28,096 nt of DNA, from positions 1-28,096 of IMG/VR virus record IMGVR_UViG_3300017754_001493, one strand, 5' to 3'. Below the pieces are notes generated by a model. The model worked only from the letters and a program-made list of their open reading frames with translations, searched no databases and had not been told where the DNA came from. The DNA comes from a virus. Its lineage: Duplodnaviria > Caudoviricetes. The translations under genes and the position numbers were made by a program. How positions within the stretch are numbered: the first letter of the stretch is position 1; every line of letters starts with the position of its first letter. Below, one piece after another: positions 8,249 through 28,009 of this stretch.

Positions 8249-8443
8249 ATGACTGAACATCAAGACACCATCAAGCACGTCATCGACGTAGTTGCCCCGT
8301 TGGCGGCAATAGGCTCATTTTTTGAGGTAATTTCACCCGTGTTTGGATTTATTGGAGCTGTGCTTGCCTTGATGCGCATTGCCGAAATGGTGACGGGCAA
8401 GAACTTCTCTGAGCTGATCCGAAAGAAGCCCGATGCCGAGTAG
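8249..8443 (+). CDS. Small membrane protein (holin-like)
   Basis: 64 aa with a long hydrophobic stretch (VVAPLAAIGSFF...VFGFIGAVLALM) and a charged C-terminus. Confidence 0.6.
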   Translation: MTEHQDTIKHVIDVVAPLAAIGSFFEVISPVFGFIGAVLALMRIAEMVTGKNFSELIRKKPDAE

Positions 8444-8825
8444 CTCAAAAAAGCAGCACAATTTCATGGCGGCGATAGCGCACAACCCTGCGTTTGCCAA
8501 GAAAGTGGGAATCCCACAGTCTGTGGGGAAAGATTTCAACGAGGCCGACAAAGGCCGCAAATTTTCAAAAGGTGGTAACACTATGGCTAAAAGCGACATG
8601 AAAGAAGACATGAAGATGGACAAGTCTCAGGACAAAGCCATGATTCAAAAGGCCTTCAAACAGCACGATGCTCAAGAGCACAAAGGCGGCAAGGGCACAA
8701 CCTTGAAGCTGGCCAAGGGCGGCTCTACCGGTTCGTACCGTTCTGCTGCTGACGGCATTGCCCAGCGCGGCAAGACTCGCGCCCAGCAGTTCTGCATGGG
8801 CGGCATGACCAAGGGCAAGAAGTGA
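8433..8825 (+). CDS. Small Lys-rich protein with three xxxGG motifs; possible nested start at 8583
   Basis: 130 aa. Contains FSKGG, LAKGG, FCMGG and AADGIAQRGKT. Confidence 0.75.
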   Translation: MPSSSKKQHNFMAAIAHNPAFAKKVGIPQSVGKDFNEADKGRKFSKGGNTMAKSDMKEDMKMDKSQDKAMIQKAFKQHDAQEHKGGKGTTLKLAKGGSTGSYRSAADGIAQRGKTRAQQFCMGGMTKGKK

Positions 8826-9067
8826 TTGCCAGCCGTGGTATGGGGGACATCAACCCCGCCAAAATGCCAAAGGGCAAACGCATGGCCAAGGGCGGCTCCA
8901 CGAACTGGATCGCCGGTGCCATCAAGAAGCCGGGTGCATTGCGCTCGGCTCTCGGTGCCAAGGAAGGCCAACCGATCCCAGCCAAGAAATTGGCAAGCGC
9001 GGCTGAAAAGCCGGGCATCATGGGAAAACGCGCTCGACTGGCGCAGACACTTAAAGGCTTGAAGTAA
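8822..9067 (+). CDS. Small Lys-rich protein (WIAGAIKKPGALR...RARLAQTLKG)
   Basis: GTGA overlap with the previous stop, 81 aa, MAKGG motif. Confidence 0.72.
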   Translation: MIASRGMGDINPAKMPKGKRMAKGGSTNWIAGAIKKPGALRSALGAKEGQPIPAKKLASAAEKPGIMGKRARLAQTLKGLK

Positions 9068-9069
9068 TC

Positions 9070-9516
9070 ATGGCGACAAAACTCGGTTCCGACGAAACGT
9101 ACATGAAGAAGTACGACCAACTGTCGCCTGCAGAACAAAAAGCAGCAGACGCTACAAAAGCAGCACGTATCAAAGCTGCCCAAGACGAAGTGGAATCCGG
9201 TGACTCCATAGGGCAGCGTGTCAGTGATGTTGCAGGACGCTTGGTTAGAAGCTTCGGCGGCTCCAGTGCCAGTGCGCAACAGCAGGCTGCAGACGAAGCG
9301 GCGGCTAAAAGGACAGCAACGCGTCAAAGCAAGTTAGACGCAGCACAGGCCCCGGCGGGCCGTAACGCTAGGTACGTCTCCGAAACTCCCGGTAAAGCCG
9401 CCGACAACTTCAAACGCGGCGGTCGCGTTAAGAAAATGGCCACCGGTGGCGCTGTCAAGGCAACCGCACAACGTGCAACCGGCTATCGCGGCTACGGCAT
9501 CGCTAAGAAAGTTTAA
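9070..9516 (+). CDS. Ala/Lys-rich low-complexity protein with FKRGG/MATGG motifs
   Basis: 148 aa, starts 2 nt after the previous stop, C-terminal RGYGIAKK. Confidence 0.7.
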   Translation: MATKLGSDETYMKKYDQLSPAEQKAADATKAARIKAAQDEVESGDSIGQRVSDVAGRLVRSFGGSSASAQQQAADEAAAKRTATRQSKLDAAQAPAGRNARYVSETPGKAADNFKRGGRVKKMATGGAVKATAQRATGYRGYGIAKKV

Positions 9517-9518
9517 TC

Positions 9519-10211
9519 ATGGCTGTCTCTGGAACCACCACGTTTAACCTAGACCTCACCGAACTGGTGGAGGAGGCGTTTGAGCGCACGGGTTCTGAGC
9601 TGCGCACCGGTTACGACTTGAAGACCGCCCGCCGGTCTTTGAACCTTTTGTTCGCCGACTGGGCCAACCGTGGCGTCAACATGTGGACGTTCGAGCAGGG
9701 GTCGATTACTTTGACCCCCGGCGTAGCCACCTACGACCTTCCTGCTGACACCGTGGACTTGCTGGAGCACGTGATCCGCACCGGTGCCGGTAGCGCGTCC
9801 ACACAGGCCGATTTGACGATCACGCGCATCAGCGTGTCCACGTACGCCACCATCCCCAACAAGCTGCAGCAAGCCCGTCCGATTCAGGTCTGGATTGAGC
9901 GCCTGCAGTCTGCACCGCGCTTTACGGTGTGGCCAGTGCCGGACAGCTCCCAGACGTACACGTTCGTGTACTGGCGCATGCGCCGCATCGACGACGCTGG
10001 TACCGGCGTGAACACGATGGATGTCCCGTTCCGGTTCATCCCTTGCATGGTGGCCGGGCTGGCGTACTACCTGTCGCTGAAGGTGCCAAACGGCATGCAG
10101 CGCACTGAGATGCTGAAACAACAGTACGATGAAGCTTGGCAGTTGGCCAGCGACGAAGACCGCGAAAAGGCTTCGATTCGCTTGGTTCCCCGTCAGATGT
10201 TCATCAACTAA
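9519..10211 (+). CDS. Head-tail adaptor / tail tubular protein A-like
   Basis: 230 aa: helical N-terminus, ITLTPGVATYDLP beta-insert, VWPVPD, GLAYYLS helix. This is an adaptor-type layout. Confidence 0.65.
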   Translation: MAVSGTTTFNLDLTELVEEAFERTGSELRTGYDLKTARRSLNLLFADWANRGVNMWTFEQGSITLTPGVATYDLPADTVDLLEHVIRTGAGSASTQADLTITRISVSTYATIPNKLQQARPIQVWIERLQSAPRFTVWPVPDSSQTYTFVYWRMRRIDDAGTGVNTMDVPFRFIPCMVAGLAYYLSLKVPNGMQRTEMLKQQYDEAWQLASDEDREKASIRLVPRQMFIN

Positions 10212-10214
10212 GCT

Positions 10215-10604
10215 ATGGGCAATAGGTTTTCTTCCGGCAAAAATGCGGTCGCCATGTGCGACCGTTGCGGTCAGCGCTATAAGCTGACCGAGCTGAAGAA
10301 GGAAGTGCAGAAGCAGCGGATTTTCAATCTGCTAGTTTGCCCGCAGTGCTGGGACCCCGACCACCCCCAGTTGATGCTGGGCACCTTCCCTGTTGACGAC
10401 CCGCAGGCCGTGCGAAACCCTCGTACGGACAGCACTTACGAAGTAGCAGGCCCAATGACAGACGGGTACAATAGTGGCGGCTCTAGAAATATTCAGTGGG
10501 GCTGGAGGCCAATCGGCGGATCGTCTTATTTTGATGCTGTCTTGACCCCGAACAACTTGGTGGCGACAACAAGCTTAGGCACAGTAACCGTAACGGTTTC
10601 ATAG
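10215..10604 (+). CDS. Zinc-ribbon protein
   Basis: CDRC...CPQC pair followed by WDPDHPQ; 129 aa. Confidence 0.72.
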   Translation: MGNRFSSGKNAVAMCDRCGQRYKLTELKKEVQKQRIFNLLVCPQCWDPDHPQLMLGTFPVDDPQAVRNPRTDSTYEVAGPMTDGYNSGGSRNIQWGWRPIGGSSYFDAVLTPNNLVATTSLGTVTVTVS

Positions 10605-10613
10605 GAGTAAATC

Positions 10614-10799
10614 ATGGCGTACAAAAAAGCAGCAGATGGTGTAGTGTCGAAAGGCAAAACCGATGCTAAAGTCCTCCCCAACAGCGGCCCCAACGCCAAA
10701 GCCACCGCAGGCGGCAAGAAAAGCGCTGGCGTGAAAAGCGCAGCGATGGTCAGTGTCGGTCGTAACATGGCCCGCGTTGCAAACCAAAAAGGCGGTTAA
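10614..10799 (+). CDS. Small Lys-rich protein
   Basis: AGGAG RBS, 61 aa, AADGVVSKGKT, ends QKGG. Confidence 0.7.
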   Translation: MAYKKAADGVVSKGKTDAKVLPNSGPNAKATAGGKKSAGVKSAAMVSVGRNMARVANQKGG

Positions 10800-10801
10800 T
10801 C

Positions 10802-11044
10802 ATGGCGATCAACAACAAACCGGCTTCGGCGTACGCTAAGCCGCACACCATGTCTGGCAAGGCCGTGCGTATGGAGTCCAACCCCGGTTCGATGCCCAAC
10901 CGCAGCAAGGCGGATTCACTGGACATGAGCATTGGCAACATCAGCAAGTCCGCTGGTAATGAGCCAACCAAGACTTCGGGCATCAAAGTCCGTGGTACTG
11001 GCGCGGCCACCAAAGGTCTGATGGCACGAGGCCCGATGGCATGA
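10802..11044 (+). CDS. Small basic protein
   Basis: 80 aa, C-terminal IKVRGTGAATKG, ATGA overlap with the next gene. Confidence 0.7.
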   Translation: MAINNKPASAYAKPHTMSGKAVRMESNPGSMPNRSKADSLDMSIGNISKSAGNEPTKTSGIKVRGTGAATKGLMARGPMA

Positions 11045-11700
11045 ACTACGCTGCTCTAGTCACAGCGATCTCCCAGTACACGGAGAACACGTTTCCGACA
11101 TCTGCGATGAACACGTTCATCACGCAGGCAGAGCAGCGCATTTACAACACCATCCAGTTCCCCTCGCTCCGCAAGAACGTCACGGGTACCGTGAGTGCGA
11201 ACAACAAGTACCTGTCGGCACCGAGCGACTACTTGGCCACGTACTCCTTGGCGGTCATCGACGACGACGGTGCGTACACCTTCTTGCTGAACAAGGACGT
11301 GAACTTCATCCGTGAAGCGTACCCAGTCCCAACAAGCACAGGCTTGCCCAAGTATTACGCCTTGTTTGGCCCGACCACAAGCGGCGGAGTCCCCACCACC
11401 GAGCTGTCTTTCATCGTTGGCCCGACTCCTGATGCGCTCTACTCCGTAGAGCTGCACTACTTCTACTACCCCGAGTCGATCACTACCGCAAGCACAACAT
11501 GGCTGGGCGACAACTTTGACTCCGTGCTGCTGTACGGCTCCTTGGTGGAAGCCTACACCTACATGAAGGGTGAGCAGGACATCATCGGCCTGTACGACGC
11601 CAAGTTCAAAGACGCCATCATTTTGGCCAAGCGTTTGGGCGACGGCATGGAACGCCAAGACGCCTACCGCAACGGGCAGTACCGTCAACAGGTGACATAA
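11041..11700 (+). CDS. Second adaptor/neck ring protein
   Basis: 219 aa. Contains FITQAEQRI, GLPKYYA, VGPTPD and LLYGSLVEAYTYMK. Confidence 0.68.
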   Translation: MNYAALVTAISQYTENTFPTSAMNTFITQAEQRIYNTIQFPSLRKNVTGTVSANNKYLSAPSDYLATYSLAVIDDDGAYTFLLNKDVNFIREAYPVPTSTGLPKYYALFGPTTSGGVPTTELSFIVGPTPDALYSVELHYFYYPESITTASTTWLGDNFDSVLLYGSLVEAYTYMKGEQDIIGLYDAKFKDAIILAKRLGDGMERQDAYRNGQYRQQVT

Positions 11701-11701
11701 C

Positions 11702-12115
11702 ATGGCAATCGTCCAAGGTCAAACCACGAGCTTCAAGAAGGAGCTGTACCAAGCAGTCCACGATCTGTCCACGGACACGATCAAGATGGCTTTGTACACG
11801 GGCGCTGCCAGCTTGAATTTGGGGACAACGGAGTACACGACCTCCAACGAGGTCGTCGCCACTGGGTATACTGCCGGGGGCAATACGCTTACTGGCGTGA
11901 CCGTCAGCGATGCAAACTACACAGCCTACGTCAACTTTGACAACACGAGCTGGACGGCTGCATTGACGGCCCGCTGCGCTCTAATCTACAATGCCAGCAA
12001 GGGCAACAAGTCCATTGCGGTAATTGACTTTGGGTCTGACAAAATGTCCACTACGACGTTCTTGGTTACAATGCCCGCCAACACTTCAACCACCGCGCTG
12101 ATCCGTAGCGCATAA
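11702..12115 (+). CDS. Tail/appendage structural protein
   Basis: 137 aa. Contains DTIKMALYT, GYTAGGNTL and ARCALIYN; coupled within the tail cluster. Confidence 0.65.
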   Translation: MAIVQGQTTSFKKELYQAVHDLSTDTIKMALYTGAASLNLGTTEYTTSNEVVATGYTAGGNTLTGVTVSDANYTAYVNFDNTSWTAALTARCALIYNASKGNKSIAVIDFGSDKMSTTTFLVTMPANTSTTALIRSA

Positions 12116-12124
12116 GGAAACAGT

Positions 12125-12715
12125 ATGTCCAACGAAAAAATCCGCTCTGCCGATACCGTGTCCAGCGGCTTGACTGCCGGTACCCGCTCAGGCGAAGAGA
12201 TGCTGGCGCTTGGCAAGTTCACCCTGACATGCTACGACAAGGACGGCAAGGTGAAGTGGACTGAAGAAAACCACAATCTGGTGGTGAACCAAGGTCTGCA
12301 GTACATGGCAAGCTGCGCACTGACCGCAGGTGCTACCGCTGTTACCCAGTTGACCGCTTGGTACATTGGCTTGTACGGAGCTGGCGCATCCAATACCCCC
12401 GCCGCTGGCGACACGATGTCGTCTCACGCTGGCTGGACAGAGATCGTCCCCTACAGCAACTCGACTCGCCCCGCTTGCACGTTCGTTGCGGCCACCACGG
12501 CAAACCCCTCGGTGGCTACCAACTCTGCGTCTCCTGCAGCGTTTACCATCAACGCCACGGCCACTGTTGGCGGCGCATTCTTGGTCAGCAACAGCACCAA
12601 GTCCGGTACGACCGGTACCCTGTTCTCTGCGGCTGACTTCTCCAGCCCCGGCGACCGTAGCGTGGTTAGCGGTGATACACTGAACGTAACCTACACGATG
12701 TCTCTCGCTGGCTAA
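12125..12715 (+). CDS. Tail/appendage structural protein
   Basis: 196 aa, AAGGA RBS. Contains HNLVVNQG and GDTLNVTY, a pattern seen in fibre/baseplate attachment domains. Confidence 0.65.
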   Translation: MSNEKIRSADTVSSGLTAGTRSGEEMLALGKFTLTCYDKDGKVKWTEENHNLVVNQGLQYMASCALTAGATAVTQLTAWYIGLYGAGASNTPAAGDTMSSHAGWTEIVPYSNSTRPACTFVAATTANPSVATNSASPAAFTINATATVGGAFLVSNSTKSGTTGTLFSAADFSSPGDRSVVSGDTLNVTYTMSLAG

Positions 12716-12739
12716 TTAACGGGCTGAACCTTGGTTCGT

Positions 12740-12770
12740 AAGTACCCGCTTCGGCGGGTATTTGTCTTTT
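12740..12770 (+). terminator. Probable rho-independent terminator/attenuator before the fibre genes
   Basis: AAGTACCCGC-TTCG-GCGGGTATTT followed by GTCTTTT. Confidence 0.7.
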
Positions 12771-12780
12771 GGAGCTACGC

Positions 12781-12957
12781 ATGAAGATCGACTTTTTCTT
12801 TGATACCCAATATGGCAGGTTTGGGGACGCGCTTTGGTTTTCGGATACAGAGCCGCTGCCAAGCGATGTGGAGATTGAGGCCATGAAGCAGCAACGCCTG
12901 ACCAACTGGCTGGCCCTCATCGAGAACCCACCTGAAGAAACCACTGGAGCTCAATAA
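12781..12957 (+). CDS. Small acidic protein, possibly fibre-associated
   Basis: ATG 12781 after GGAG, 58 aa, TAATG overlap with the next gene. Confidence 0.65.
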   Translation: MKIDFFFDTQYGRFGDALWFSDTEPLPSDVEIEAMKQQRLTNWLALIENPPEETTGAQ

Positions 12958-13832
12958 TGGCACTCATCCTTGCCGACCGCGTACAAGAAACAACCAACAC
13001 TACCGGTACAGGTACGCTGACCCTTGCCGGAGCCGTGTCGGGATTCCAGTCGTTCTCCGTTATTGGTAACGGCAACACCACGTATTACACCATTGTCTCT
13101 GGCTCTGCGTGGGAAGTGGGTATTGGCACCTACACCTCGGTAGGAACAACCCTTGCACGTACCACTATCCTGTCTTCGTCCGCTGCGGGCGCAGCCATCA
13201 CTGTAGCTGCTGGCGCAAGCGTGTTTGCCACCTACCCAGCAGAGCGCTCTGTGAACTTGGACGGCGGAGGCAACATCCCTCAAGCCGTGACGGCAGGTCT
13301 TGGAACTACGGTGCTTCCGGGCGAAGTGTTTTACCGGTTGAACTCCACAGTTGCAGGAGCTAATGCAACGGGCGCTCAAAGTATTCTTGGAGTTGGCGTG
13401 ACTTTGGCTGGCTCCACGGTTTATCAATTTGAAGGGGTGTTTGCATTCAGCAAGGCAGCAGGAACCACATCGCACACCTTTGGTGTTGGCTTTGGTGGAA
13501 CGGCCACCCTGAACAACATTGGCTACGAGTTAACCGGTCAAATGAATGCAACCGGTCTTACAACCACAACTACAGCTATTGCAAACATCTTACCTTGGTA
13601 CATTCAGACCGCATCAAACACACCGTTTACCAGTGCAATCACAACGGCTGCTGAATACATAATGATGGTTGTGAAAGGCACTGTGTCAGTAAATGCAGGC
13701 GGCACATTTATACCCCAATACACTTTGAGCGCTGCTCCGGGCGGTGCATACACAACCGCGCTTGGTAGCTATTTCAAGCTATCCCCGCTTGGCGCTTCCG
13801 GTGCTAACACCAGTATCGGTACTTGGGCCTAA
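12957..13832 (+). CDS. Tail fibre/appendage protein
   Basis: MALILADRVQETTNTTGTGTLTLAGA anchor-type N-terminus; C-terminal beta-sandwich-like region with lower GC. Confidence 0.7.
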   Translation: MALILADRVQETTNTTGTGTLTLAGAVSGFQSFSVIGNGNTTYYTIVSGSAWEVGIGTYTSVGTTLARTTILSSSAAGAAITVAAGASVFATYPAERSVNLDGGGNIPQAVTAGLGTTVLPGEVFYRLNSTVAGANATGAQSILGVGVTLAGSTVYQFEGVFAFSKAAGTTSHTFGVGFGGTATLNNIGYELTGQMNATGLTTTTTAIANILPWYIQTASNTPFTSAITTAAEYIMMVVKGTVSVNAGGTFIPQYTLSAAPGGAYTTALGSYFKLSPLGASGANTSIGTWA

Positions 13833-13841
13833 AGGGTAGCC

Positions 13842-16800
13842 ATGTTCGGTTTTACCCCCATCGCAGCCGCTCCTATAGGGAGCAATACTTCGGTTGCCGG
13901 TTCGTTCCCGGCAGGCCGCTACTGGGTCGGGGGGTCTGGAACTTGGGACGCAACAACCACAACGAACTGGTCAGCTACGTCTGGTGGCGCAGGCGGGGCC
14001 TCCGTGCCGACGAGCACGGATGATGTCTTTTTTGACCAAGCAAGCACCTATACCGTGACAATTGCAAGCGGGACAAGGGTGTGCAAGGACTTTACACTTG
14101 TGACGGGCGCGGTTACCTTTTCGGGAAACCCCAACCTTACAATTTCTGGGTCGCTTCTTTGGATGCTACCGCCTACCAGTTTTACTTCTGGAATATCGTT
14201 GATATTTAACGGCGCAGGCAGTCAAACTATGGCCACCAGTGGATTTTCTACTGGAAGTGCGATCAGTTTTACGGGCAGTACGCTTACGATGTCCTTGGCA
14301 GGAGCGCTCACCAATACAAATACCTCCGGTATTAGCGTAACGGGTAGTGGTGCAGTACTCAACACCGCAGGGTACACTGTCACTGCTAGTAAGCTTGCGG
14401 GTACCGCTGGTACCATAAATCTTGGCGCATCCACGGTTACGCTATCCAACCAAAACCCACTCACATATTCGGGGACTTTGAATGCCGGAACCTCTCAGCT
14501 TAACTTATCGAGTTCAAGCACAACCCTAACACTGGGCGGCTCAAACACTACGCTTTATAACGTAACCTTTACTTCAACGTCCCCTGCAGTATCCATTACT
14601 GGGGCCTACACCTTTAATACACTCTATATTACCGGGGCGGGTGGAACTGGGTTGTTTACAGTGGCCTTTGGTGCTAACCAAACAATTGGAACACTGACTC
14701 TTGCTAGTAGTGGGCTTGCCTATGCTCGCGTAATGCTTATGTCCAGCGTATTTAACACGCAAAGAACCCTTGCCGTTACTACACTTACAGCGGGTGCAGG
14801 TGACGTAGATTTTCAAGATATTGCAGTTACAGGAACTACGTTAACAGGCACTAGGTTTGGGGATGCAGGCGGTAATAGTGGCATCACTTTCCCCGCCGCT
14901 AAAACAGTGTATTTTCGCGCCACTGGCAGTGCGAACTGGGGTAGCGCAACCTCATGGTCTGCGACTTCTGGTGGGGCGGCAGCTTCGAGTAGCTTCCCAT
15001 TGGCGCAAGACACCGCCGTATTCCCGGCTGCTACATATCCAGCATCAGGGGCTACTACTACGGTAAACGCAGCGTACAACATTGGAACCATAGACATGAG
15101 TCTTCGTACTGCAAATACGATGACCTTAGTAACAGGTTCAAACAGTCCGTATTTCTACGGGGGCTGGATTAACGGCACGGGCATTACACTTACGGGCTCT
15201 GGGGTTCTTACGTTTGCAGGCAGGACTACACAGAATATAACTAGCGCCGGAAAGTCTTTTGCAGCGAGCGTAACTGTTAACACGCCCGGCGGTACTGTCG
15301 TGCTGCAAGATGCGTTTGTTTTGGCTGCTGGGGGCGGGGCGGACTTTGTACATAACAACGGAACCATAAACCTCAACGGGCAGACGCTTACTATTGCAGG
15401 CGCTACTAACGCTACGTACACCACAGGGGTTGGAACTAAGAACCTAGCGTTTAACGGCGGGTCGTTGGTGATTAACTCTACCTCCGGGTTTAACAATGCT
15501 GCGCCAACTGGGTTTACTACGACTGCGGGCACGGGTACCGGAACAATTAGCTTGACAAGCGCAAGCACCAAGACTTTTGTTGGTGGCGGGTCTACCTTTA
15601 ACTGCACACTGAACCAAGGTGGCGCGGGTCAGTTGAGCGTGTCTGGCTCAAATACGTTTCTGGATATTACCAACACGTACTCCGCCACAGGCGCTACCTC
15701 AGTTAAATTTACTGCTGGCGCAACCAACATCTTTACCGCCTTCAACCTGACTGGAACGGTCGGTAAGGTCTGTACGCTCGGCTCTTTGACTGCCGCACAG
15801 ACCACCCTGCAAAAAGGTACGGTATGGCAGATGGGTGCCAACTCCACCGACGGCGGCAATAACTCAGGGCTGTCGTTTGTCGCTGGTGGCGGTATTGACT
15901 ACTTGTCGGTTAGCTATATCAATGGAACAGTTGTAGGTGGAGGGACTGTATATAACGTCAATCTGTCGGACACCGCTACAGCTACAGATGCGATATCGGC
16001 TATATTTAACGCCTACTCCGCACTCACTGAAACCACCACGGGTACGGACGCCATCACGGTTACCTATACCGCCAACCCTGCGGTATCCGAGACAGGCACG
16101 GCGACCGACGCCGACACTGCGCAGTACGTAGCCAACCCGAACATTACAGAGACCGCCACGGCAACGGACACCGTTGACCCACAATCTACGGCCAACGCCG
16201 CAGTCTCGGAAACCGCAACCGCCACTGACTTCTTGGCAGTATCTGCTGCATGGGCGGCAATCGTTGCTGAGACGGGCACTGCTACCGACTTGGTGTTTGG
16301 GTTCAGCGGGAACCTTTATCTTGTCAGTATCGACGAGTCTGCCTCTATTGCGGATGTTGCTGCTGCAGCCATCAGCTTCCGGGTAACCGTGGCAGAGACA
16401 GCGACCGCAACGGATAGCCTGACAACACTCGCGACATTCAGGTCTACCGTAGTTGGGACGGCCACCGCCACTGACTCCCCTCGGGCGGCTCAGGTGTTTA
16501 GGGGGACGTTGGCCGAAGCGGCTACCGCCTCGGACGCTATCAGTAGGGTCGTTGCCTTTTACGTGCAAGTTGCTGAGGGCACAACCGCTACCGATGCCAC
16601 CGCTATCGCGGCGTCCATATTCAACGCTCCGTTTGAGGACACCATCGGTGTTATAGATACCGTAGTAGCAAGCAGTACGTATAATGCCTCGGTGCTCGTG
16701 GCGTTGGTTGCTTCAGACACAATTGTCGGCGCGTTTCTGTGGAACCTGATAGACGACGCTCAGACCGCAAACTGGCAAAATATTGGCACCAACCAGACGC

Positions 16801-16859: not shown

Positions 16860-16868
16860 GGAAATTGT

Positions 16869-18848: not shown

Positions 18849-18856
18849 GGAAAATC

Positions 18857-19123: not shown

Positions 19124-19125
19124 CC

Positions 19126-19605
19126 ATGATCGACCCGATCACCGCCTTTGCTACGGCCCAAGCGGCCATCAAGGGAGTCCAAGCCGCGATCAAAATGGGC
19201 AAGGACTTGCAAGGCATCAGCGGTGATCTGATGAAGTTCTTTGAGCACAAGGACGTTGTTGCTAAGGCCGCGTCTGAACCGAAGAAGGGTTTTGGCAAGT
19301 CCGATACCGCTCAAGCCTTTGAAACCGTACTGCACGCCAAGATACTGCAAGACGCCGAGAACGAATTGAAGCAACACCTGATCTGGTCTGGTCAGGCTGA
19401 CGTGTGGCAGGCAATCCTGCTGGAACGAAACAAGATTGTGCAGAAGCGCAAAGCAGACGAGGCAGCTATGGAAAAGGCAAAGGCCAAGCGTAAGAAAGAG
19501 ATTGAAGAGGTGGTTGAGCTGGTACTACTGGTGATCGCCGCCGCTGGCTTCATCACGCTGCTTGCTTGGGGCACGATGGAATACATTGCATTCATGCGGA
19601 GGTAA
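19126..19605 (+). CDS. Coiled-coil protein with C-terminal transmembrane helix (lysis-cassette associated)
   Basis: 159 aa; MIDPITA N-terminus, basic coiled coil, hydrophobic LVLLVIAAAGFITLLAWG. Confidence 0.65.
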   Translation: MIDPITAFATAQAAIKGVQAAIKMGKDLQGISGDLMKFFEHKDVVAKAASEPKKGFGKSDTAQAFETVLHAKILQDAENELKQHLIWSGQADVWQAILLERNKIVQKRKADEAAMEKAKAKRKKEIEEVVELVLLVIAAAGFITLLAWGTMEYIAFMRR

Positions 19606-19606
19606 T

Positions 19607-20011
19607 ATGCTACTTGACTCAGTTCTTGGTATCGGCAATAAGCTGATCGACAAACTCATCCCCGACCCCGAGGCCAAAGCCAAGGCGCAGTTGGAGTTGG
19701 CAACCCTTGCGCAAAATGGTGAACTGGCCAAGATGGCCAACGAGACCGACATCTACAAAACGGAACAAGCCAATGTTACAGACCGCTGGAAATCTGACGA
19801 TGCTGCTGATAGTTGGCTTGCTAAAAATATTCGCCCTCTGTCTCTGGTTGCTATTTTTGTTGGCTATTTTTTGTTTGCTCTCATGTCTGCTTTTGGCTAC
19901 AACGCCAATGAGGGTTATGTCAATTTGCTGGGGCAGTGGGGTATGCTCATCATGTCGGCGTACTTTGGCGGCAAAACTCTTGAGAACATCATCGCGATGA
20001 AGACCAAATGA
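19607..20011 (+). CDS. Holin (3TM GTA-type family)
   Basis: ATG 19607 after GGAGG. Contains LIDKLIPDP, SWLAKNIRP, TM helices and AYFGGKTLE; overlaps the endolysin start. Confidence 0.78.
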   Translation: MLLDSVLGIGNKLIDKLIPDPEAKAKAQLELATLAQNGELAKMANETDIYKTEQANVTDRWKSDDAADSWLAKNIRPLSLVAIFVGYFLFALMSAFGYNANEGYVNLLGQWGMLIMSAYFGGKTLENIIAMKTK

Positions 20012-20439
20012 CCCAGTTGACAGAGCACTTTACCCTTGAAGAGCTGACGCGCACCGACCACCGTCAGTTCGACAACACGCCCGATGCCTTGGAAACAAGC
20101 AATCTGAAGCGTCTGGCCGAGTTTTTGGAGCAGGTCAAAGCTACCCTCGGGGGCAAGCCGATCATGGTGAACAGTGCCTTTCGCAGTCACGCCGTCAACA
20201 ACGCCGTGGGCAGCAAGGAAACTTCCCAGCACCGCGTGGGCTGCGCTGCGGACATCCGCGTGCCGGGCATGACGCCTGACCAAGTGGTTCGCGCCGTCAT
20301 TGCTGCCAACCTGCCGTTTGACCAGATCATCAGGGAATTCGACTCTTGGACGCACATCAGCGTCCCCAACTTGCCAACCTTTACACCAAGGAAGCAAGCA
20401 CTCATCATTGACAAAGCTGGCACTCGACCTTTTGCCTGA
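20008..20439 (+). CDS. Endolysin, Zn peptidase family M15
   Basis: HFTLEEL, SAFRS, SQHRVGCAAD (SxHxxGxAxD) and WTHIS Zn-ligand motifs. Confidence 0.88.
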   Translation: MTQLTEHFTLEELTRTDHRQFDNTPDALETSNLKRLAEFLEQVKATLGGKPIMVNSAFRSHAVNNAVGSKETSQHRVGCAADIRVPGMTPDQVVRAVIAANLPFDQIIREFDSWTHISVPNLPTFTPRKQALIIDKAGTRPFA

Positions 20440-20457
20440 TCCGTGGGAGAATGAGCC

Positions 20458-22590
20458 ATGCCTTTACAGAAGATCGTCCTCAAGCCCGGAGTAAACCGGG
20501 AGAACACTCGGTACACCAATGAAGGTGGCTACTACGAGTCGAACTTGGTTCGCTTTCGTCAAGGCACGCCCGAGAAGATTGGCGGCTGGCTGCAGATTTC
20601 CGGCAACACGTTCACAGGCATTTGCCGTTCGTTGTGGAACTGGATAACACTGGCAGGCGCTAATTTGATTGGCGTTGGTACTGAGGTGAAATTCTACGCG
20701 TCTCAAAACGGCGCTTACTACGACATCACCCCTGTAGTTAGTACCGAACTGCTTGGAACCGACCCAATTACCGGTAGCGGCACGACCACTGTCACCATAA
20801 CAGACCTGAACTACCACCCTGCCGTAGGCGACTACGTTATTTTTCATGGCGCGACTGCCGTGGGCGGTGTCACAATTAGCGGTGAGTACCAAGTCACTTC
20901 GCTGCCGTCATCGACTACGTACACCATCGTTGCAGCAAGTGCAGTTACGGGTACAGGCGGCGGCTCCGTCATGTACGCCTCGTACCTGCTCAGCGTTGGT
21001 ACAAGCACGTCCAGCACTTTCTTGGGCTGGGGTAGCGGTACATGGGGCAGCGGCACTTGGGGCGGTATCGGACAGGTTGTGAACCAAACCGGCCTGAAGC
21101 TGTGGACGCAGTACAACTTTGGCGAGAACTTGCTGTTCGGCCCCAAGCGCGGAGCCATGTACTACTGGAACGCGACAACCGCGCCGACTCTGGTAGCGCC
21201 CACTACGGTGACCATTTCTAACGGGGGCGGTGCCTCCGATGCGGTTATGACGGTCACGTCGAACACGACCACGACTTTGCCGGACAACACGGCCATCATG
21301 TTTGAGACCACGGCAGCGCTGCCGCTTCCATTGAAGCCGCTGACCATCTACTACACGACCAGTACCGGCTCCACTACATACAAGCTATCGGCTACATCTG
21401 GCGGGGCGTTCATCAAAACGACAACTGCCGGTTCGGGCGACCAAACGCTTTCCATCCGTGCTGTTCCAGTAACATCGCTCAGCGGTGCCTCTGACGTTCC
21501 CTTGACCCAGAACACGTTGCTGGTATCTGACGCCAGCCGCTTTACGCTCGTGTTTGGCTCCAATGACTACGGCAACGACACGTACGACCCGATGCTTGTG
21601 CGCTGGTCTGACCAAGAGAGCGTTACCAACTGGACGCCAGCAATCACCAATCAGTCCGGCAGCTTACGCCTGTCCCACGGGTCGCAGATTCAGGCTGTCC
21701 TGCAGTCCCGCCAAGAGATTTTGGTGTTCACCGATGCGGCGCTCTACTCGCTGCAGTATCTTGGGCCTCCGTACGTTTGGGGTTCTCAGCTTCTGTCGGA
21801 CAACATCTCCATCGTCAGTATCAATGCTGCCGCGTACACCAGCGGCATGGCGTTCTGGATGGGTGCAGACAAGTTCTACAAGTACGATGGCCGGGTGCAA
21901 CCCCTGCGCTGTGACCTGCGCCAGTTCATCTACAACGACATCAACCGAACCCAGTTCGGCCAGATTTTTGCTAGCACCAACGAGGGCTTCAACGAGGTCT
22001 GGTGGTTCTACTGCACCCAAAATAGTAACGTCATCAACCGATACGTGGTGTACAACTACGTCGAAGACGCTTGGTACTACGGCTCTATGGGGCGCACCGC
22101 TTGGCTAGACTCCTCATTATTGGACTACCCGATTGCTGCCACGTACTCAAACAACATTGTTTACCACGAGTACGGCGTGGATGACGGCACTCTGTTGCCT
22201 GCTACGGCAATGGAGTCGTCTATCACAACCTCGCAGTTTGATATTGGCGATGGTCACAACTTTGCGTTTGTGTGGCGTATGCTGCCCGACTTGACCTTCC
22301 GTGGGTCTACCGACGGCACCACACCTAGCTTGACCATGCAGCTCCAACCCCTGCAGAACTCCGGTTCGGGGTACAACGACCCCAAGTCCGTCGGCGGCAC
22401 AAGCTCGGACGCTACACAGACCGTCGCGGCAACGCAGACATACCCCATCGACTTGGACACCTTCACCGGCCAGTTGAACATCCGTGTGCGCGGTCGCCAG
22501 ATGTCTATGCGGATTGCCTGCAACACCCTCGGCACCCAGTGGCAGCTCGGAGCGCCCCGCATCGACATGCGCCCTGACGGAAGGCGCTAA
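20458..22590 (+). CDS. Tail nozzle / tubular protein B (P22 gp10-like beta-propeller)
   Basis: 710 aa. Contains VRFRQGTPEKIGGW, LVRWSDQE, FNEVWWFY, NRYVVYNY and RVRGRQ; precedes the internal proteins. Confidence 0.75.
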   Translation: MPLQKIVLKPGVNRENTRYTNEGGYYESNLVRFRQGTPEKIGGWLQISGNTFTGICRSLWNWITLAGANLIGVGTEVKFYASQNGAYYDITPVVSTELLGTDPITGSGTTTVTITDLNYHPAVGDYVIFHGATAVGGVTISGEYQVTSLPSSTTYTIVAASAVTGTGGGSVMYASYLLSVGTSTSSTFLGWGSGTWGSGTWGGIGQVVNQTGLKLWTQYNFGENLLFGPKRGAMYYWNATTAPTLVAPTTVTISNGGGASDAVMTVTSNTTTTLPDNTAIMFETTAALPLPLKPLTIYYTTSTGSTTYKLSATSGGAFIKTTTAGSGDQTLSIRAVPVTSLSGASDVPLTQNTLLVSDASRFTLVFGSNDYGNDTYDPMLVRWSDQESVTNWTPAITNQSGSLRLSHGSQIQAVLQSRQEILVFTDAALYSLQYLGPPYVWGSQLLSDNISIVSINAAAYTSGMAFWMGADKFYKYDGRVQPLRCDLRQFIYNDINRTQFGQIFASTNEGFNEVWWFYCTQNSNVINRYVVYNYVEDAWYYGSMGRTAWLDSSLLDYPIAATYSNNIVYHEYGVDDGTLLPATAMESSITTSQFDIGDGHNFAFVWRMLPDLTFRGSTDGTTPSLTMQLQPLQNSGSGYNDPKSVGGTSSDATQTVAATQTYPIDLDTFTGQLNIRVRGRQMSMRIACNTLGTQWQLGAPRIDMRPDGRR

Positions 22591-22592
22591 GC

Positions 22593-22892
22593 ATGGCACA
22601 GAAAAACGTAGCCGCCCCTCGGCTCCCCGGTGCCACGGATCAATACGATCCGGTGATGCTGAACGAGCTTATCAATATCTTGCGGCTGTACTTCAATCGG
22701 TTGGATAATGCAGGGCCTATCGCAGGGGCGTCCCAGTTCAACGGCACAGCCGTCGTGTCAGGGTTGAGTTTCCCGCCCAACCCCGGATCAACAACGCCCA
22801 GTTTGCCAACTCAAGCCGATCTCGCTAATCTACGCTCTGGGGACATCTACTACGACACCTCGGCAAGCAACGTACTGAAAGTAAAACTATGA
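22593..22892 (+). CDS. Small tail protein after the nozzle
   Basis: 99 aa; APRLP...ILRLYFNRLD helix, LRSGDIYYD C-terminus. Confidence 0.68.
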   Translation: MAQKNVAAPRLPGATDQYDPVMLNELINILRLYFNRLDNAGPIAGASQFNGTAVVSGLSFPPNPGSTTPSLPTQADLANLRSGDIYYDTSASNVLKVKL

Positions 22893-24889
22893 GCCTCCAA
22901 CACGTCGCCAACCATTTAGCCTCTCAGGGTCGCAACGGCGACTCTATGCTGATGCACGTCACACCGAATGAAGTGGCCGGTTTGCAGTCGCTTGCGCAGC
23001 AGCACGGCGGCTCTTTGACCGTCAACCCCAATACGGGTTTACCCGAAGCCAACTTCTTGGATGACATCGGCTTGGGCGCAGTCAACAAGTTTGTACCTGC
23101 TATTGCTGGCGCTGGGCTGTCTTTCTTTACGGGTATTGACCCGATGACAGCGGCGGGCATGGTGGGCGGCTTGGCAGGACTCAGCTCCGGCAGTCTTTCA
23201 GAAGGTATTAAGGCAGGTCTCGGCGCGTACGGCGGCGCAAGTTTGACTGGTGCTTTGAGTTCTGCGGGAGAAGCAGCGCAAGCGGCGGCGGACGGCGTGA
23301 GTGCCAGCGGCCCGGTAGGGGCTTCCAAAATTGCTGCGGCTTCCACCGAACCCATGAGCGTGCTGGACAAGCTAGGCGCGGGCGCAAGCGCTGCGGCAGA
23401 ACACCCAATGGACTTCATTAAGGACAACAAGTTTGCCCTAGGCGCTATCGCACTCCCCGCGCTAGCAGACATGGCCACTCCCGGCGCTGGCCCGACACCG
23501 CTCAAAAACACGGGCTACATCCGTCGCTACGCCAAGAACCCTGAGACTGGCGCACTGGAGCAAGTCGAAGCCGTGCCTGTTGACGATTGGGGCAGTCGGT
23601 CAGCCGTTTCGTTCGGCGGCGTTGGTCAGCCCGTCAAGTACATGGCTGGCGGTGGGATTACGACCGACCCGTTTACGGGCGAGGTAACGTACGTCGGTGA
23701 TGGCACTGAGACCGAGACAACGCCAGCAACACCAACTGCGACACCTAGTGGCACATATCGGGTCTACAACCCGGACACTAAAAAATACGACACCGTGAAT
23801 GCTTCCGGCACTCCGGTTGGCCCCGTTACGTTTGGCGGTGTTGCACGAACTACGCCAGTGATGCGCAACCCTAATGACACCCGTTCTGACTCCCAAAGTG
23901 CCTACGACTACCTGATGGGAAAGCCCGGCGCTCAGAACCCGATGTTGTTCTACCACCAGCAGGCCCCTGCCGCTTCTAGCGTTTTGGCCCCGTTGGACTT
24001 GGAGACTCGTACCGGTGGACACTACGTTCTCAATGCAGCCAAGACTGGCTACGATTGGATTCCCGATACCGCCGCTACGCCAGCCGCCGCAGACGCAGGC
24101 ATCGCCGCACTGGCCGCTGGCCGTGGCCAAGCCAACCCCAACAATGCTACTGACGGCAGCGCAGGCATCCCTGACAACGCAGGTACTCGCGCAGCGGTTG
24201 TAGCAGGAAACCAACTGGGTACGCTCGGAAATATTGCACTGGGCAAGATTGCCAATCTATTTGCCCCTGAGAAAACCCAAGCTGAAATAGATGCCACGGA
24301 TGTTGTGGACAAGTCATTCACACCACTTGCTCCCGGCGATTTTGGTTTTATGGGGCCACCCGCGCCCGATGGAAACGATAACGGCTTTATGGGGCCACCT
24401 GACCCGAGCGGGAGAGATGTAGGTCCGCCCGCTCCAGATGGAAGAGATGTAGGACCGCCTGCCCCCAGCCCAAATGGTGACGGTGGTGACGGTGGTGATG
24501 GTGGGGGCGGAGAGGCACGCGGCGGATTGAACCTGCACGGCAAATACTTCCCCCCTCAGTACGCCCAAGGCGGGATTGCTGCGCTGGCCGGTGGCGGTCT
24601 CGGTTCGCTGGGTGGATATTCTGATGGTGGTCAGCTACTTAAAGGCCCCGGTGACGGTGTGTCCGACAGCATCCCAGCTACAATTGGCCAAGGTCAACCA
24701 GCACGTTTGGCAGACGGAGAGTTTGTGATTCCAGCACGTATCGTGTCTGAACTGGGCAACGGTTCTACCGAGGCAGGCGCTAAGCAACTGTACGCAATGA
24801 TGGCACGCATCCAAGCAGGACGCGCTAAGACAACCGGTAAAAACAAAGTGGCAACGGACAGCAAAGCTGATCGTCACCTCCCCGCATAA
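22889..24889 (+). CDS. Internal virion/ejection-type protein with tape-measure-like GPG..SD..GEFV module
   Basis: 666 aa; N-terminal GRNGDSMLMHVTPNE...NPNTGLPEA, hydrophobic Gly/Ala segment, disordered middle, conserved-looking C-terminal module. Confidence 0.7.
   Translation: MSLQHVANHLASQGRNGDSMLMHVTPNEVAGLQSLAQQHGGSLTVNPNTGLPEANFLDDIGLGAVNKFVPAIAGAGLSFFTGIDPMTAAGMVGGLAGLSSGSLSEGIKAGLGAYGGASLTGALSSAGEAAQAAADGVSASGPVGASKIAAASTEPMSVLDKLGAGASAAAEHPMDFIKDNKFALGAIALPALADMATPGAGPTPLKNTGYIRRYAKNPETGALEQVEAVPVDDWGSRSAVSFGGVGQPVKYMAGGGITTDPFTGEVTYVGDGTETETTPATPTATPSGTYRVYNPDTKKYDTVNASGTPVGPVTFGGVARTTPVMRNPNDTRSDSQSAYDYLMGKPGAQNPMLFYHQQAPAASSVLAPLDLETRTGGHYVLNAAKTGYDWIPDTAATPAAADAGIAALAAGRGQANPNNATDGSAGIPDNAGTRAAVVAGNQLGTLGNIALGKIANLFAPEKTQAEIDATDVVDKSFTPLAPGDFGFMGPPAPDGNDNGFMGPPDPSGRDVGPPAPDGRDVGPPAPSPNGDGGDGGDGGGGEARGGLNLHGKYFPPQYAQGGIAALAGGGLGSLGGYSDGGQLLKGPGDGVSDSIPATIGQGQPARLADGEFVIPARIVSELGNGSTEAGAKQLYAMMARIQAGRAKTTGKNKVATDSKADRHLPA
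24338..24511 (+). repeat. Tandem Pro/Gly repeats (GFMGPP x2, RDVGPP x2, DGG x3)
   Basis: TTTATGGGGCCACC at 24347 and 24386; AGAGATGTAGG at 24413 and 24443; GGTGACGGT units. Confidence 0.85.
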
Positions 24890-24898
24890 GGAACAGTC

Positions 24899-25963
24899 AT
24901 GGCAGACCCAACATCAACAGTCCAGCAACAGGTAGGCTTTGCCCCCGAAATTGCCCCGTACGGGCAAGGCGTCTTGGCCGGTGCCGCGCAGGCGGTTGCC
25001 ACCCCATACCAAAGCTACGCTGACTGGGCAAAAACCCAAGGACTCAGCGGCGATCAAGTTGCGCAGTTCACCGACCTGCAGAAGCAGGCGTTCCAAGGCG
25101 CTCAAGGTTTGGGGCAGAACCAGTACTCCCAACAGGCTGCAGCAGGCTTGGCAGGCTTGTCTCAACAAGCAGGCAACGCCCAGTACAACCCGAACCAGTT
25201 CAACACGCAGAGCTTCAACGCCGCCGGTACTGCTGACCAGTACATGAACCCGTACATGCAGAGCGTGGTGGACATCCAGAAGCGCGAAGCACAACGCCAG
25301 TCCGGTATCCAAGGAACGCAACAGCAGGCCCAAGCCGCACAGGCCGGTGCCTTCGGCGGTAGCCGCGACGCCATCATGCGTGCCGAGCGCGAGCGCAATC
25401 TGGGAACCCAGATGAACGACATCCAAGCCCAAGGAAGCAACGCTGCATTCCAACAGGCGCAGCAGCAATTCAACGCCGAGCAGAACCGCAACCTGACCGC
25501 CCAACAGGCAACAGAGCAGTCGAACCAGTTCGGTGCAAATCTCGGTCTTCAGGGCACCCAAATGGGTCTGCAGGGCTACTCGGCGCTGGGTTCTCAGGGC
25601 CAGAACCTGTATGGCCAGACCACCGGCAACTTGGGAATTCAGAACCAAATGGGCACGCAGCAACAGCAGCAAGTCCAAAACATGCTCAACACTGGGTACC
25701 AAAACTACACCAACGAGCAGAACTACCCGTACAAGCAGATCGGCTTCATGTCCGACATCGTGCGCGGTTCGCCCATGTCCGGTCTCGGTTCAACGGTATA
25801 CCAACAGCAGCCGTCCATGCTTAATCAGGTGGCCGGTCTGGGCACCGCTGCAGCAGGTATGTACGGCGCGTACAACAAGTCCCAAGGAAACGCCAAGGGC
25901 GGCGAGATCAAATCTAAGAAACCTGCTGGACTGCCTGCGTTGCTTGTCCACAGCATGGCATAA
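24899..25963 (+). CDS. Gln-rich DNA ejection/pilot-type protein
   Basis: 354 aa. Contains YMNPYMQSVVD and AGAFGGSR, Q-rich helices and a C-terminal Gly/Ala segment; AAGGA RBS. Confidence 0.7.
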   Translation: MADPTSTVQQQVGFAPEIAPYGQGVLAGAAQAVATPYQSYADWAKTQGLSGDQVAQFTDLQKQAFQGAQGLGQNQYSQQAAAGLAGLSQQAGNAQYNPNQFNTQSFNAAGTADQYMNPYMQSVVDIQKREAQRQSGIQGTQQQAQAAQAGAFGGSRDAIMRAERERNLGTQMNDIQAQGSNAAFQQAQQQFNAEQNRNLTAQQATEQSNQFGANLGLQGTQMGLQGYSALGSQGQNLYGQTTGNLGIQNQMGTQQQQQVQNMLNTGYQNYTNEQNYPYKQIGFMSDIVRGSPMSGLGSTVYQQQPSMLNQVAGLGTAAAGMYGAYNKSQGNAKGGEIKSKKPAGLPALLVHSMA

Positions 25964-25972
25964 GGAAACATC

Positions 25973-28009
25973 ATGGCTTTTCATCCTTCTACGGGCGGCA
26001 TCGGAGCCTTGGGCGCTCTGAACAAAGCCTCTGTCAGCGGTGTGGGCGAACCGATGAGCACCGACGCTCTGATTGCCAACTTGATCGGCATGACCCCTGC
26101 AGAACGGCAGCAATTTGCGTCCATCAACGCAAACGACCCGATGAAGCTGTCCGCCGCCAAGTACGTGGACAACCAGCTCAAAACACAAGCCAGCCAGTTG
26201 GTGGCGCAACAGAACCGGACGGCACCCCCACCGGTGAACCAACAGACCGTGGCCAGCATGGCCGGAGCCTCGCAAGGACAACCCGCACCGCAACAGATGG
26301 CTCAGGGTTTACCCGAAGAGACCGGCATCGGCGCTTTGCCCGTGCCTGAAATGAAGCACATGGCCGCTGGCGGCATCGTTGCTTTTGCCGACGGCGGGTT
26401 CAACAGCGAGCTGTTCCGCAAGTTCTTGGAGAGCGTCGGTAAGACAGGTTCCGACTTTGCAAATGCTGACTCCGCCACTAAAAAAGGCTTAATGGATGCC
26501 TTTGGTCGAGCCACATCTGGGCCACAACTCCCCCCATCTGCACCCGTCACCAACGTCCCAGCTGCCGCACCGGTTAATCCCTACGCCCCAGCAACACCCG
26601 GCACAAGTTACGCAGACACAAAAAGCCCTCTGCAGCGTTTAATGTCGGGGCCGAAGGGTAATATTATGGGCGCTCTTGCCGTTCCTGCGGCTGTGGCGTA
26701 CGGCGGGGGGAAACTTAGTTCTGCTGCGGCAAACACTTTGAACGCCATGAGCGACGAAGATTTGGGAACCCTATCTAATGTAGGCGGCGGAGATGACACA
26801 GCGCTTGCTGCGGCTATTTTGCGCGAAGGGCGAAATAACCCCACTCCGGCCACACCCGCAAAACCGGGCGACTATCGCGGCTCAAAAGATGTTCCCTACA
26901 CAGGTTCAGGTGTGCCGTCGGCATCTGCCGCAGCCGCACGTAGCGGCGCTTCCACACAAGCGGGAGCAAACGCACAAGCCGCGCGTGCCGCCGCACCCCA
27001 AAGTGATACCGGAGCCGGAGCCGGAGCCGGAGCAGGAGTACCCCGTACAGGTGCAGGCACAGCTCCGAGCAGCAACACCCAAACGGGCATGCCGAATGCG
27101 GCAGCGACCTATGCGGGCATGTTGAAGCAGTTGCCCCCAACAGTAGTCCCGCAAGAGTACCGGGATATTGAGCAGCTTCAAGTGGAGCAAGCAAACAAAG
27201 GCTTGGAGTCGGATCAAGCCGCAGCGGCAAAACTGCAAGAATATTTGGGCAAGCGCGGTGAACGCCTTGACCAACGGGCAGCGCGTCTTAAAGACAAGAG
27301 CGACAACGACATCAACATGTCCCTTATCGACGCAGGTTTGGCAATGATGCAGTCTCGCGGCCAAGGGCTGGCGGGTATCGCCGAAGGCGCTGGTGTGGGT
27401 ATGAAGCGCTATACCGAAGAATCTCGCCTGACAGAAGCCGCACGTCAGAAGATTGAAGAAGCCCGCGACGCATATGACGACCTGAAGTTCAACCGCGAAG
27501 ACATGTCCCGCAAGGAAATCCTTGCACGGAAAAAAGAAATTTCCGATGCGCACATTGCACTCAAAAAGAACAATGTGGACTATATGGTGGCACACGAAGG
27601 CATGGATCGCAAAACGGCAGATCATATGTACGACTCTGCTATGAACTTTGCACTGGAAGGCCAACGTCAACAGTACCAAAGCAAAGAAAACGTCCTAGAC
27701 AGGGCAAACCGCCTGCAAGCTGCAGCCGCGCCGTTGAATGCACAGCTAGGAATTCTTTCCGCGTTGGGCAACGCCGAGCCGGGAAGCCCCATTGCAAAAG
27801 GGTTTAAGCTACAGAAGCTGGAAGCCCAAGAGCCTGCGATGTTCAAAAACTATATTGACCTTGTCAACGACCCAATCAAAGGTGACAAGTTCAAAGCGCA
27901 GTACCCAGATTTTTCTTCGTACTTGGCGGACTTCAACAAGCGTGGCGGTATTGCTGCGCTGCCGGGAGGCGGTGGTGCTGCCACCGCGCCGGTTGTCTTG
28001 CCTCGCTAA
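25973..28009 (+). CDS. Large internal virion/ejection-type protein
   Basis: 678 aa; MAAGGIVAFADGG, low-complexity middle, coiled-coil C-terminal half; AAGGA RBS. Confidence 0.7.
   Translation: MAFHPSTGGIGALGALNKASVSGVGEPMSTDALIANLIGMTPAERQQFASINANDPMKLSAAKYVDNQLKTQASQLVAQQNRTAPPPVNQQTVASMAGASQGQPAPQQMAQGLPEETGIGALPVPEMKHMAAGGIVAFADGGFNSELFRKFLESVGKTGSDFANADSATKKGLMDAFGRATSGPQLPPSAPVTNVPAAAPVNPYAPATPGTSYADTKSPLQRLMSGPKGNIMGALAVPAAVAYGGGKLSSAAANTLNAMSDEDLGTLSNVGGGDDTALAAAILREGRNNPTPATPAKPGDYRGSKDVPYTGSGVPSASAAAARSGASTQAGANAQAARAAAPQSDTGAGAGAGAGVPRTGAGTAPSSNTQTGMPNAAATYAGMLKQLPPTVVPQEYRDIEQLQVEQANKGLESDQAAAAKLQEYLGKRGERLDQRAARLKDKSDNDINMSLIDAGLAMMQSRGQGLAGIAEGAGVGMKRYTEESRLTEAARQKIEEARDAYDDLKFNREDMSRKEILARKKEISDAHIALKKNNVDYMVAHEGMDRKTADHMYDSAMNFALEGQRQQYQSKENVLDRANRLQAAAAPLNAQLGILSALGNAEPGSPIAKGFKLQKLEAQEPAMFKNYIDLVNDPIKGDKFKAQYPDFSSYLADFNKRGGIAALPGGGGAATAPVVLPR

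Follow-up and report, generated by a model that had tools for sequence, protein, structure and literature searches.

The 28,096-nucleotide stretch analysed here (IMG/VR record IMGVR_UViG_3300017754_001493, a virus of the Caudoviricetes; "the window" denotes the whole of it) is a phage late region, and six of its proteins carry copies of a short peptide, a bulky residue followed by Ala or Ser, any residue and two Gly, which marks the joints of internal proteins. This motif is probably a maturation cleavage site, cut at the bond in front of the Ala or Ser (x/[AS]xGG, the slash being the cut). A conserved module of about 90 residues, which closes the first putative ejection protein, may be the enzyme that cuts the motif by way of a conserved Glu, and we regard it as a serious candidate protease, if not quite an even prospect. 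The module would free its own N-terminus and then, presumably in trans, divide the remaining ejection proteins into separate pieces; from the small basic proteins it would release positively charged peptides of 10–60 residues inside the particle. Support comes from the enrichment and conservation of the motif, from the single module per genome that begins at a motif, from motif-bracketed copies in tape measures, and from motifs found at fusion and indel seams.

The motif is concentrated in putative internal proteins

Twelve core sites and three variants had been listed in an earlier note on this DNA. All are where that note had placed them, in frame on the + strand, in the following six proteins, for which the term ejection protein, like the terms scaffold and nozzle below, is a putative label drawn from family matches and gene order.

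8433..8825, + strand: basic protein of 130 residues, with FSKGG (8562), LAKGG (8709) and FCMGG (8790)
8822..9067, + strand: basic protein of 81 residues, a short leader, MAKGG (8882), then a 60-residue module
9070..9516, + strand: protein of 148 residues, with paired FKRGG (9409) and MATGG (9436) ahead of a basic tail
22889..24889, + strand: first ejection-block protein, 666 residues, with MAGGG (23642), the variant EARGG (24512), YAQGG (24560), LAGGG (24584) and YSDGG (24617)
24899..25963, + strand: second ejection-block protein, 354 residues, matching PHROG 4287 "DNA ejection protein" (E 3.5e-7)
25973..28009, + strand: third ejection-block protein, 678 residues, with paired MAAGG (26360) and FADGG (26384) behind a leader of about 130 residues, and the variant NKRGG (27935)

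The near-absence of the motif elsewhere is likewise borne out, with no site in the terminase fragment, the portal, the scaffold, the capsid or the two SU10-type adaptors; two additional matches in the window (LAAGG, 15321; MANGG, 18807) both lie in Gly-rich fibres. The pattern [FYML][ASK]xGG was observed 11 times in the six proteins against 1.35 expected, a count reached in none of 3000 per-protein shuffles, and its strict form [FYM][ASK]xGG 9 times against 0.78, whereas the other 29 window proteins hold 2 matches of the former against 2.24 expected. Similarly, 11 of 32 Gly-Gly runs in the six proteins carry the motif versus 2 of 54 elsewhere. Since the pattern was picked after seeing the window, related loci provide the real test. 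In a sample of 160 such loci, the motif accompanies 341 of 1202 Gly-Gly runs in 163 distinct homologues versus 63 of the 2298 found across 1217 classified proteins of other kinds, and Gly-rich controls score low (decoration protein, 0/156; capsid, 0/149; nozzle, 10/589). With the window added to these loci, the six classes carry the strict motif at a density of 1.9–16.5 per 1000 residues. For capsid, portal, scaffold, adaptors, decoration protein, fibres and nozzle the value is 0–0.3, and a few small neighbour proteins are intermediate (0.7–2.8). An unbiased profile around Gly-Gly shows Tyr, Met or Phe at −3 and Ala at −2. Composition and conservation, both of which the earlier note had left to be checked, thus speak for the motif: it is kept in related loci, and Gly/Ala/Lys composition is ruled out as the cause of its frequency by matched shuffles and the Gly-rich controls. 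Because synonymous codons differ across 222 sites, the motif is a feature of the protein and not a DNA repeat, an origin that this codon variation rules out.

A conserved module begins at the motif

The last 90 residues of the 666-residue protein form the module, which the earlier note had overlooked.

24617..24886, + strand: module of about 90 residues (GPGDG-SDSIPA...LADGEFV), beginning at the motif YSDGG, with a predicted mature start at 24620
24719..24721, + strand: conserved Glu, residue 35 of the module and 611 of the protein, the candidate catalytic residue
24665-24667, + strand: Asp17 of the module, a candidate partner of the Glu

The module is the best-conserved part of a variable protein of 340–1200 residues. 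Of the 39 nozzle-anchored loci whose downstream DNA extends for 6 kb or more, 38 have one copy (L148 has none), and in three loci (L088, L146 and L160) it sits inside the next gene, flanked by motifs on both sides. In the window the copy is C-terminal, and its end, HLPA, aligns with the YMPGG/FMPGG of internal copies; the upstream motif is present. Gly5 and Glu35 occur in all 135 module rows, a constancy that for Glu35 is partly by construction because the rows were anchored on it; Glu35 also stands in every visible row of a partial, un-anchored listing. The module profile matches 17,483 clusters (50% identity), and a tree of the 135 rows (quick method, 61 columns) is mostly unresolved. AlphaFold2 models a beta-hairpin and two helices, the N-terminus being loosely placed (predicted local distance difference test, 73; predicted template modelling score, 0.56). 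His is absent from the module in the window clade, and no Pfam, NCBIfam or PDB match ties the module to known peptidase families (M14 HxxE, Asp, Cys or Ser prohead proteases).

Two variations on the module were observed. One and a half copies, a half copy from the (G)FVIPA strand followed by a full copy, are present at L151:15300-15737, L139:9960-10382 and L114:10514-10855; the half copy of L114 reads MEDGGFV, and therefore LADGEFV within the module itself is an echo of the motif. A divergent module (EDTMLAQLADGEFV) is found at L161:37799-38749 and in HTVC023P-like loci (L188-L261), where an Asn form of the motif (FNQGG, YNQGG, FNKGG) and an insert of about 25 residues stand ahead of it.

The module in tape measures and lambda gpH

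Searches with the module of a relative (L159) find 362 confirmed prophage stretches, with tape-measure-like proteins, in many phyla. Module members match tape-measure PHROGs, and an iterated profile search reaches lambda gpH after the addition of lambda-like loci. The 135-row profile matches the tape measures 8ZDO and 8RK3, the match to lambda 8IYK being circular, while the window module compared directly with tape measures gives weak matches (E 0.02–0.07). The core shared with the gpH-type distal module (G-x-G..G-E-F-V, then a helix) makes the two homologous by sequence. Of 57 distinct long tape-measure-like matches, 52 have x[AS]xGG upstream, 45 have it downstream and 40 are bracketed by it; the corresponding figure for control windows is 2.9%. 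The query opened with the motif, but most matches spanned its residues 11–41, and it had no downstream motif. The residue preceding the Ala is Phe in 21 of these matches and Arg in 7.

The sequence of lambda gpH reads F733-ATGG..HRGEFV..YATGG. The likeness to gpH pointed out in the earlier note is thus right, and stronger than it had seen, because the whole module is shared and not the peptide alone. Cleavage of gpH has been on record since 1974; a peptide of about 14 kDa is lost, and the site and catalyst are stated as unknown in the available text of a report of November 2025 (PMC12617516). A cut at F733/A734 would release a fragment with a computed mass of 12,522 Da; a second cut, which may fall at Y778/A779, would give 7,716 Da. 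The papers on JBD30, Sf11, TLS, phiTE and DT57C contain no measured tape-measure cleavage site, position 1066 of JBD30 being, in the part of the paper available, its authors' speculation.

Two complete motif-bracketed modules occur in some tape-measure-like proteins (L392, L417, L367, L389 and PDB 8ZDO chain S). Lambda gene H itself turns up at 94–100% identity in unrelated bacterial assemblies (L262-L289), probably as spike-in contamination.

External boundaries in T5 pb2 and crAss001 gp45

T5 pb2 matures to pb2* and pb2C, with a cut reported after R1127 (Linares et al., available text of PMC10038345). The sequence at this cut is VPR/AEGG, followed by EHGTEVV, and the mass computed for residues 1128–1219, 9702 Da, equals the intact mass of 9702 given by the same authors (available text of PMC11937500). 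RAEGG is retained in the 6 T5-like loci inspected among the 12 fetched.

The nearest named Atlas cluster of the module is crAss_CARG1 (0.85; a lead only). Its crAss001 member gp45 has A-x-G-G at positions 207, 261, 330, 425, 560 and 827. Cryo-electron microscopy resolved residues 425–552 on the portal and 214–245 in the tail, 420 Å apart, and the authors assume a continuous chain (Bayfield et al., PMC10172136, as available); "cleav" does not occur in the main text and one supplement of that article. In N-AFGG the Ala is residue 425, and the piece 214–245 is enclosed by two motifs. In 6 of 7 diverse gp45 homologues inspected, the domain comes after AFGG. Among 120 close homologues, 82 are length variants, 74 of them with a deletion running from motif to motif (266–375 in 61, 330–424 in 11, 261–329 in 2), in about three events; other indels do not track motifs. 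The cut is placed before Ala because of these two boundaries, the contested R1127/AEGG of T5 and the domain start A425 of N/AFGG in crAss001.

We also re-analysed published crAss001 peak lists obtained by matrix-assisted laser desorption/ionisation (PMC6235969, bands 4–13 of 13, trypsin autolysis peaks removed by hand). Of 26 fully tryptic gp45 peptides, none was matched in bands 4–10 and 12–13, and band 11 yielded 2 (0.9 expected); for the equimolar portal, 4 of 38 were seen in band 5. This re-analysis is uninformative because gp46 was missed too and band 10 is nearly empty; the lack of gp45 at 70–100 kDa in these bands fits the absence of intact 91-kDa gp45, and is too weak to count. In crAss phage cr112_1 (L480:939-3988), the homologue of this protein is annotated as three overlapping open reading frames, the last starting 22 residues before the domain-opening AFGG.

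Joints in the ejection and small basic proteins

The gene of the first ejection-block protein keeps its place behind the nozzle gene in relatives, and it is from gene order that its ejection role is presumed. Its neighbours are the SU10-type adaptors, the nozzle-like gene and the ejection PHROG, and the whole 666-residue protein has no tape-measure match in Pfam or PHROGs. The sole motif of the 354-residue protein is the variant NAKGG (25889) near its C-terminus, a place that in fused relatives is the seam and bears a full motif. Many of its homologues are 730–990 residues long, and four fused ones hold both the 354- and the 678-residue parts (BLAST), with motifs at the junction. In locus L087 (12831-14309), the first ejection protein's C-terminal region contains a stretch ending in YVNGLLVHN directly ahead of LAAGG, which we take to resemble the end of a Hint/intein-type domain. 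Many relatives (loci L081-L160) have an extra open reading frame of 113–211 residues between the ejection genes; the window has none.

Cutting the 130-residue protein at its motifs would give pieces of 44, 49, 27 and 10 residues, each net positive. Its N-terminal 44–60 residues match PHROGs 16759, 22033 and 25121. The 60-residue module of the 81-residue protein, which here lies behind MAKGG, is N-terminal and opens its own reading frame in 8 of 9 profile matches. In relatives, the small basic reading frames of the capsid-adaptor interval vary in number and length and retain the motif. That the basic peptides would neutralise DNA charge is a guess. A by-eye idea that the small-protein modules are homologous to the crAss gp45 cassettes was dropped, no profile match being found at E 0.05. 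Next to these genes, window 7993-8247 encodes a DUF6321 basic protein whose homologue in L044 and L074 is longer and has FAKGG at residue 44, the first-motif position of the 130-residue protein, which suggests a fusion.

Probable cleavage and its alternatives

The cleavage and polyprotein half of what the earlier note called a processing or packaging code is backed by T5 pb2, crAss001 gp45, the fusion seams and the motif-to-motif indels. Several observations nevertheless weigh against our reading. The module core is tiny and holds a single constant acidic residue with a variable partner, Asp17 occurring in 105 of 135 rows and the lambda type having a His nearby, and Foldseek with the AlphaFold2 model matched no solved fold. 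The T5 site is disputed, a reply citing the older V1148±1, and R1127 is also a trypsin site (available text of PMC11937520). That the T5 and crAss regions are homologous to the module is our inference, but module profiles against T5 pb2 were not significant (E in the range 0.09–0.3 across the T5 and crAss comparisons), and neither was the hhalign pairing of gp45 PNLVEQGE with module ARLADGE (E 0.09–0.3). Furthermore, none of 135 module members (A2) matched crAss_CARG1 (PF25725) above the Pfam cut-off, and Foldseek with the medium-confidence model did not return 7QOG (chain M). A density boundary can reflect order rather than a chain end, and motif-to-motif indels could arise by recombination without cleavage. 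The predicted lambda fragment is 12.5 kDa against the reported value of about 14 kDa (PMC12617516, available text). Lastly, co-occurrence of module and motif is weak outside the window clade. In the ejection block of nine named genomes of the window's head type, the five with a module have 15 motifs versus 7.1 expected and the four without have 1 versus 4.8; about 5 of these 15 belong to the flank of the module itself, which is the sole site in the module-bearing Caulobacter RW, and L148, L168 and L171, CRP-901-like loci included, have single motifs with no detected module. Because of these own-flank motifs, of RW and of the module-less loci with motifs, action in trans is well motivated only in the freshwater clade of the window.

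A host protease or another phage protein could cut the same bond, leaving the module as a docking or portal-anchoring domain only. Twelve copies of the crAss001 domain bind the portal wing (available text of PMC10172136), which fits an anchor role and is a further point against the enzyme; the module is without a catalytic fold match, and the rest of the genome lies outside the window. Yet motif and module travel together across proteobacterial, actinobacterial and bacteroidetes hosts, module-less relatives have few motifs, and the tail-tip module of tape measures cannot bind a portal; we regard this explanation as unlikely.

It also seems unlikely that the motif is left uncut here and acts in docking, loading cargo into the prohead by attaching to the module or to a site on portal or scaffold. 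Such a peptide would suit the confinement of the motif to probable internal proteins and its pairs, whose 8–9-residue spacing would favour avid binding; moreover, the module starts with the motif and echoes it at LADGE and in the half-module MEDGGFV (L114), as if the motif completed the fold. However, T5 is cut inside the motif (PMC10038345 and PMC11937500, as available), and a large fourth ejection reading frame, found in relatives past the point where the window ends, must be packaged and is mostly without the motif. Tape measures, which are not head cargo, bear the motif without entering the head; this, together with a likely cut before Ala and not at Gly-Gly, also leaves the encapsidation tag of the earlier note short of direct support.

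Two unrelated features might instead have been merged, a turn of the module with decayed copies in the ejection proteins and, in small DNA-binding proteins, a low-complexity tendency towards Lys and Gly (MKKGG). Indeed, the small proteins contain 10–15% Gly and prefer Lys at position 2 (MKKGG, LKKGG, FKRGG), unlike the Ala of tape measures. This dual origin is nonetheless improbable, as 124 of 177 Gly-Gly runs in the 130-residue family carry the motif and equally Gly-rich proteins have almost none, and as these small proteins often have the Ala form (YAKGG, FAEGG, MASGG) too, in exchange with the Lys form. Cysteine proteases of the adenain, ULP and C39 families cut after Gly-Gly, and an invariant Gly-Gly behind a hydrophobic residue would suit them, but a cut at that point is disfavoured and hardly credible, since both external boundaries (T5 and crAss001, in the reports as available) precede Ala and no such protease was found among the window proteins (Pfam, PHROGs) or in the annotation of cultured relatives (partial genomes).

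Cleavage before Ala or Ser remains the likeliest reading. In its widest form, the proposal is that a Glu-dependent protease module of 50–90 residues, of no known family and cutting x/A-x-G-G, is common to siphophage tape measures (lambda, JBD30, T5), crAss cargo and abundant aquatic podophages, that it is the catalyst of gpH cleavage (F733/A734, through E755), that gp45 is a polyprotein, and that the window module acts in trans on at least six proteins; taken in this full breadth, it is plausible but more doubtful than probable.

The window and its relatives

Pfam and PHROGs scans of the window identify a terminase fragment, a portal, a GroES-like gene, a probable scaffold, a capsid and two SU10-type adaptors, as well as fibres, lysis genes, a nozzle-like gene and the three ejection-block reading frames. 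Judged from family matches and gene order, the phage is likely short-tailed. Its capsid is 69.5% identical to that of MinM2/Pra-JY27, 62.5% to that of pelagiphage HTVC023P and 56% to that of CRP-901, and an estimated ~18,000 IMG/VR stretches match the capsid query. The GroES-like gene (3349-3795, between portal and scaffold) is kept in all named relatives, including module-less ones, and is likely a capsid-folding co-chaperonin. It was rejected as a component of the system because CRP-901, QDWS535, ct2G2228 and ct2os315 have GroES without the module.

Comparison with known systems

Tape-measure cleavage is already known. No description was found of the shared motif, of the module as catalyst or of cargo processing in podophages, most subscription papers and the primary reports of 1974–2008 being beyond the search. 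Should the proposal be true, the gpH cut, which still lacks an explanation, would gain a named bond (F733/A734) and residue (E755), the crAss001 gp45 pieces 420 Å apart would have a simpler reading, and polyprotein processing of internal proteins would exist in a very abundant phage family.

Like the window protein, lambda gpH has a GEFV module bracketed by motifs (FATGG, YATGG) and is cleaved near the module region. It differs in that His replaces Ala/Ser three residues before the Glu and that the SDSIPA Asp is missing; furthermore, lambda-type motifs stand only beside the module and on no other gene, while in the window phage several genes carry them. T5 pb2 resembles the module in its A-E-G-G N-terminus and in H-G-T-E-V-V about 20 residues on, as the module Glu follows the motif, and departs from it as a siphophage tail protein with one site and an Arg before the Ala. 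The T5 authors read the downstream part of pb2 as a muralytic metallopeptidase (available text of PMC10038345), a self-cutter being our own proposal. The crAss001 C1 protein (gp45; PF25725, PDB 7QOG) is, as in the window, podophage cargo with several A-x-G-G motifs; a motif opens its folded domain, in which the core, L-V-E-x-G-E-V, is similar. In contrast to the window protein, gp45 is described as an uncut chain threaded through the portal (available text of PMC10172136), its domain is longer with an invariant His, and the motifs lie mainly in one protein.

The GroES-encoding podophages HTVC023P, CRP-901 and Pra-JY27 share with the window the capsid (56–70% identity) and head gene order. CRP-901 has neither module nor motifs, and HTVC023P has the divergent module with the Asn form of the motif. 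As in the head processing of T4 and phiKZ and in the targeting of T4 internal proteins, one short motif is common to many internal proteins. The T4 and phiKZ systems differ by a separate prohead protease that cuts after Glu, whereas here the motif is another one and a cargo protein contains the candidate enzyme.

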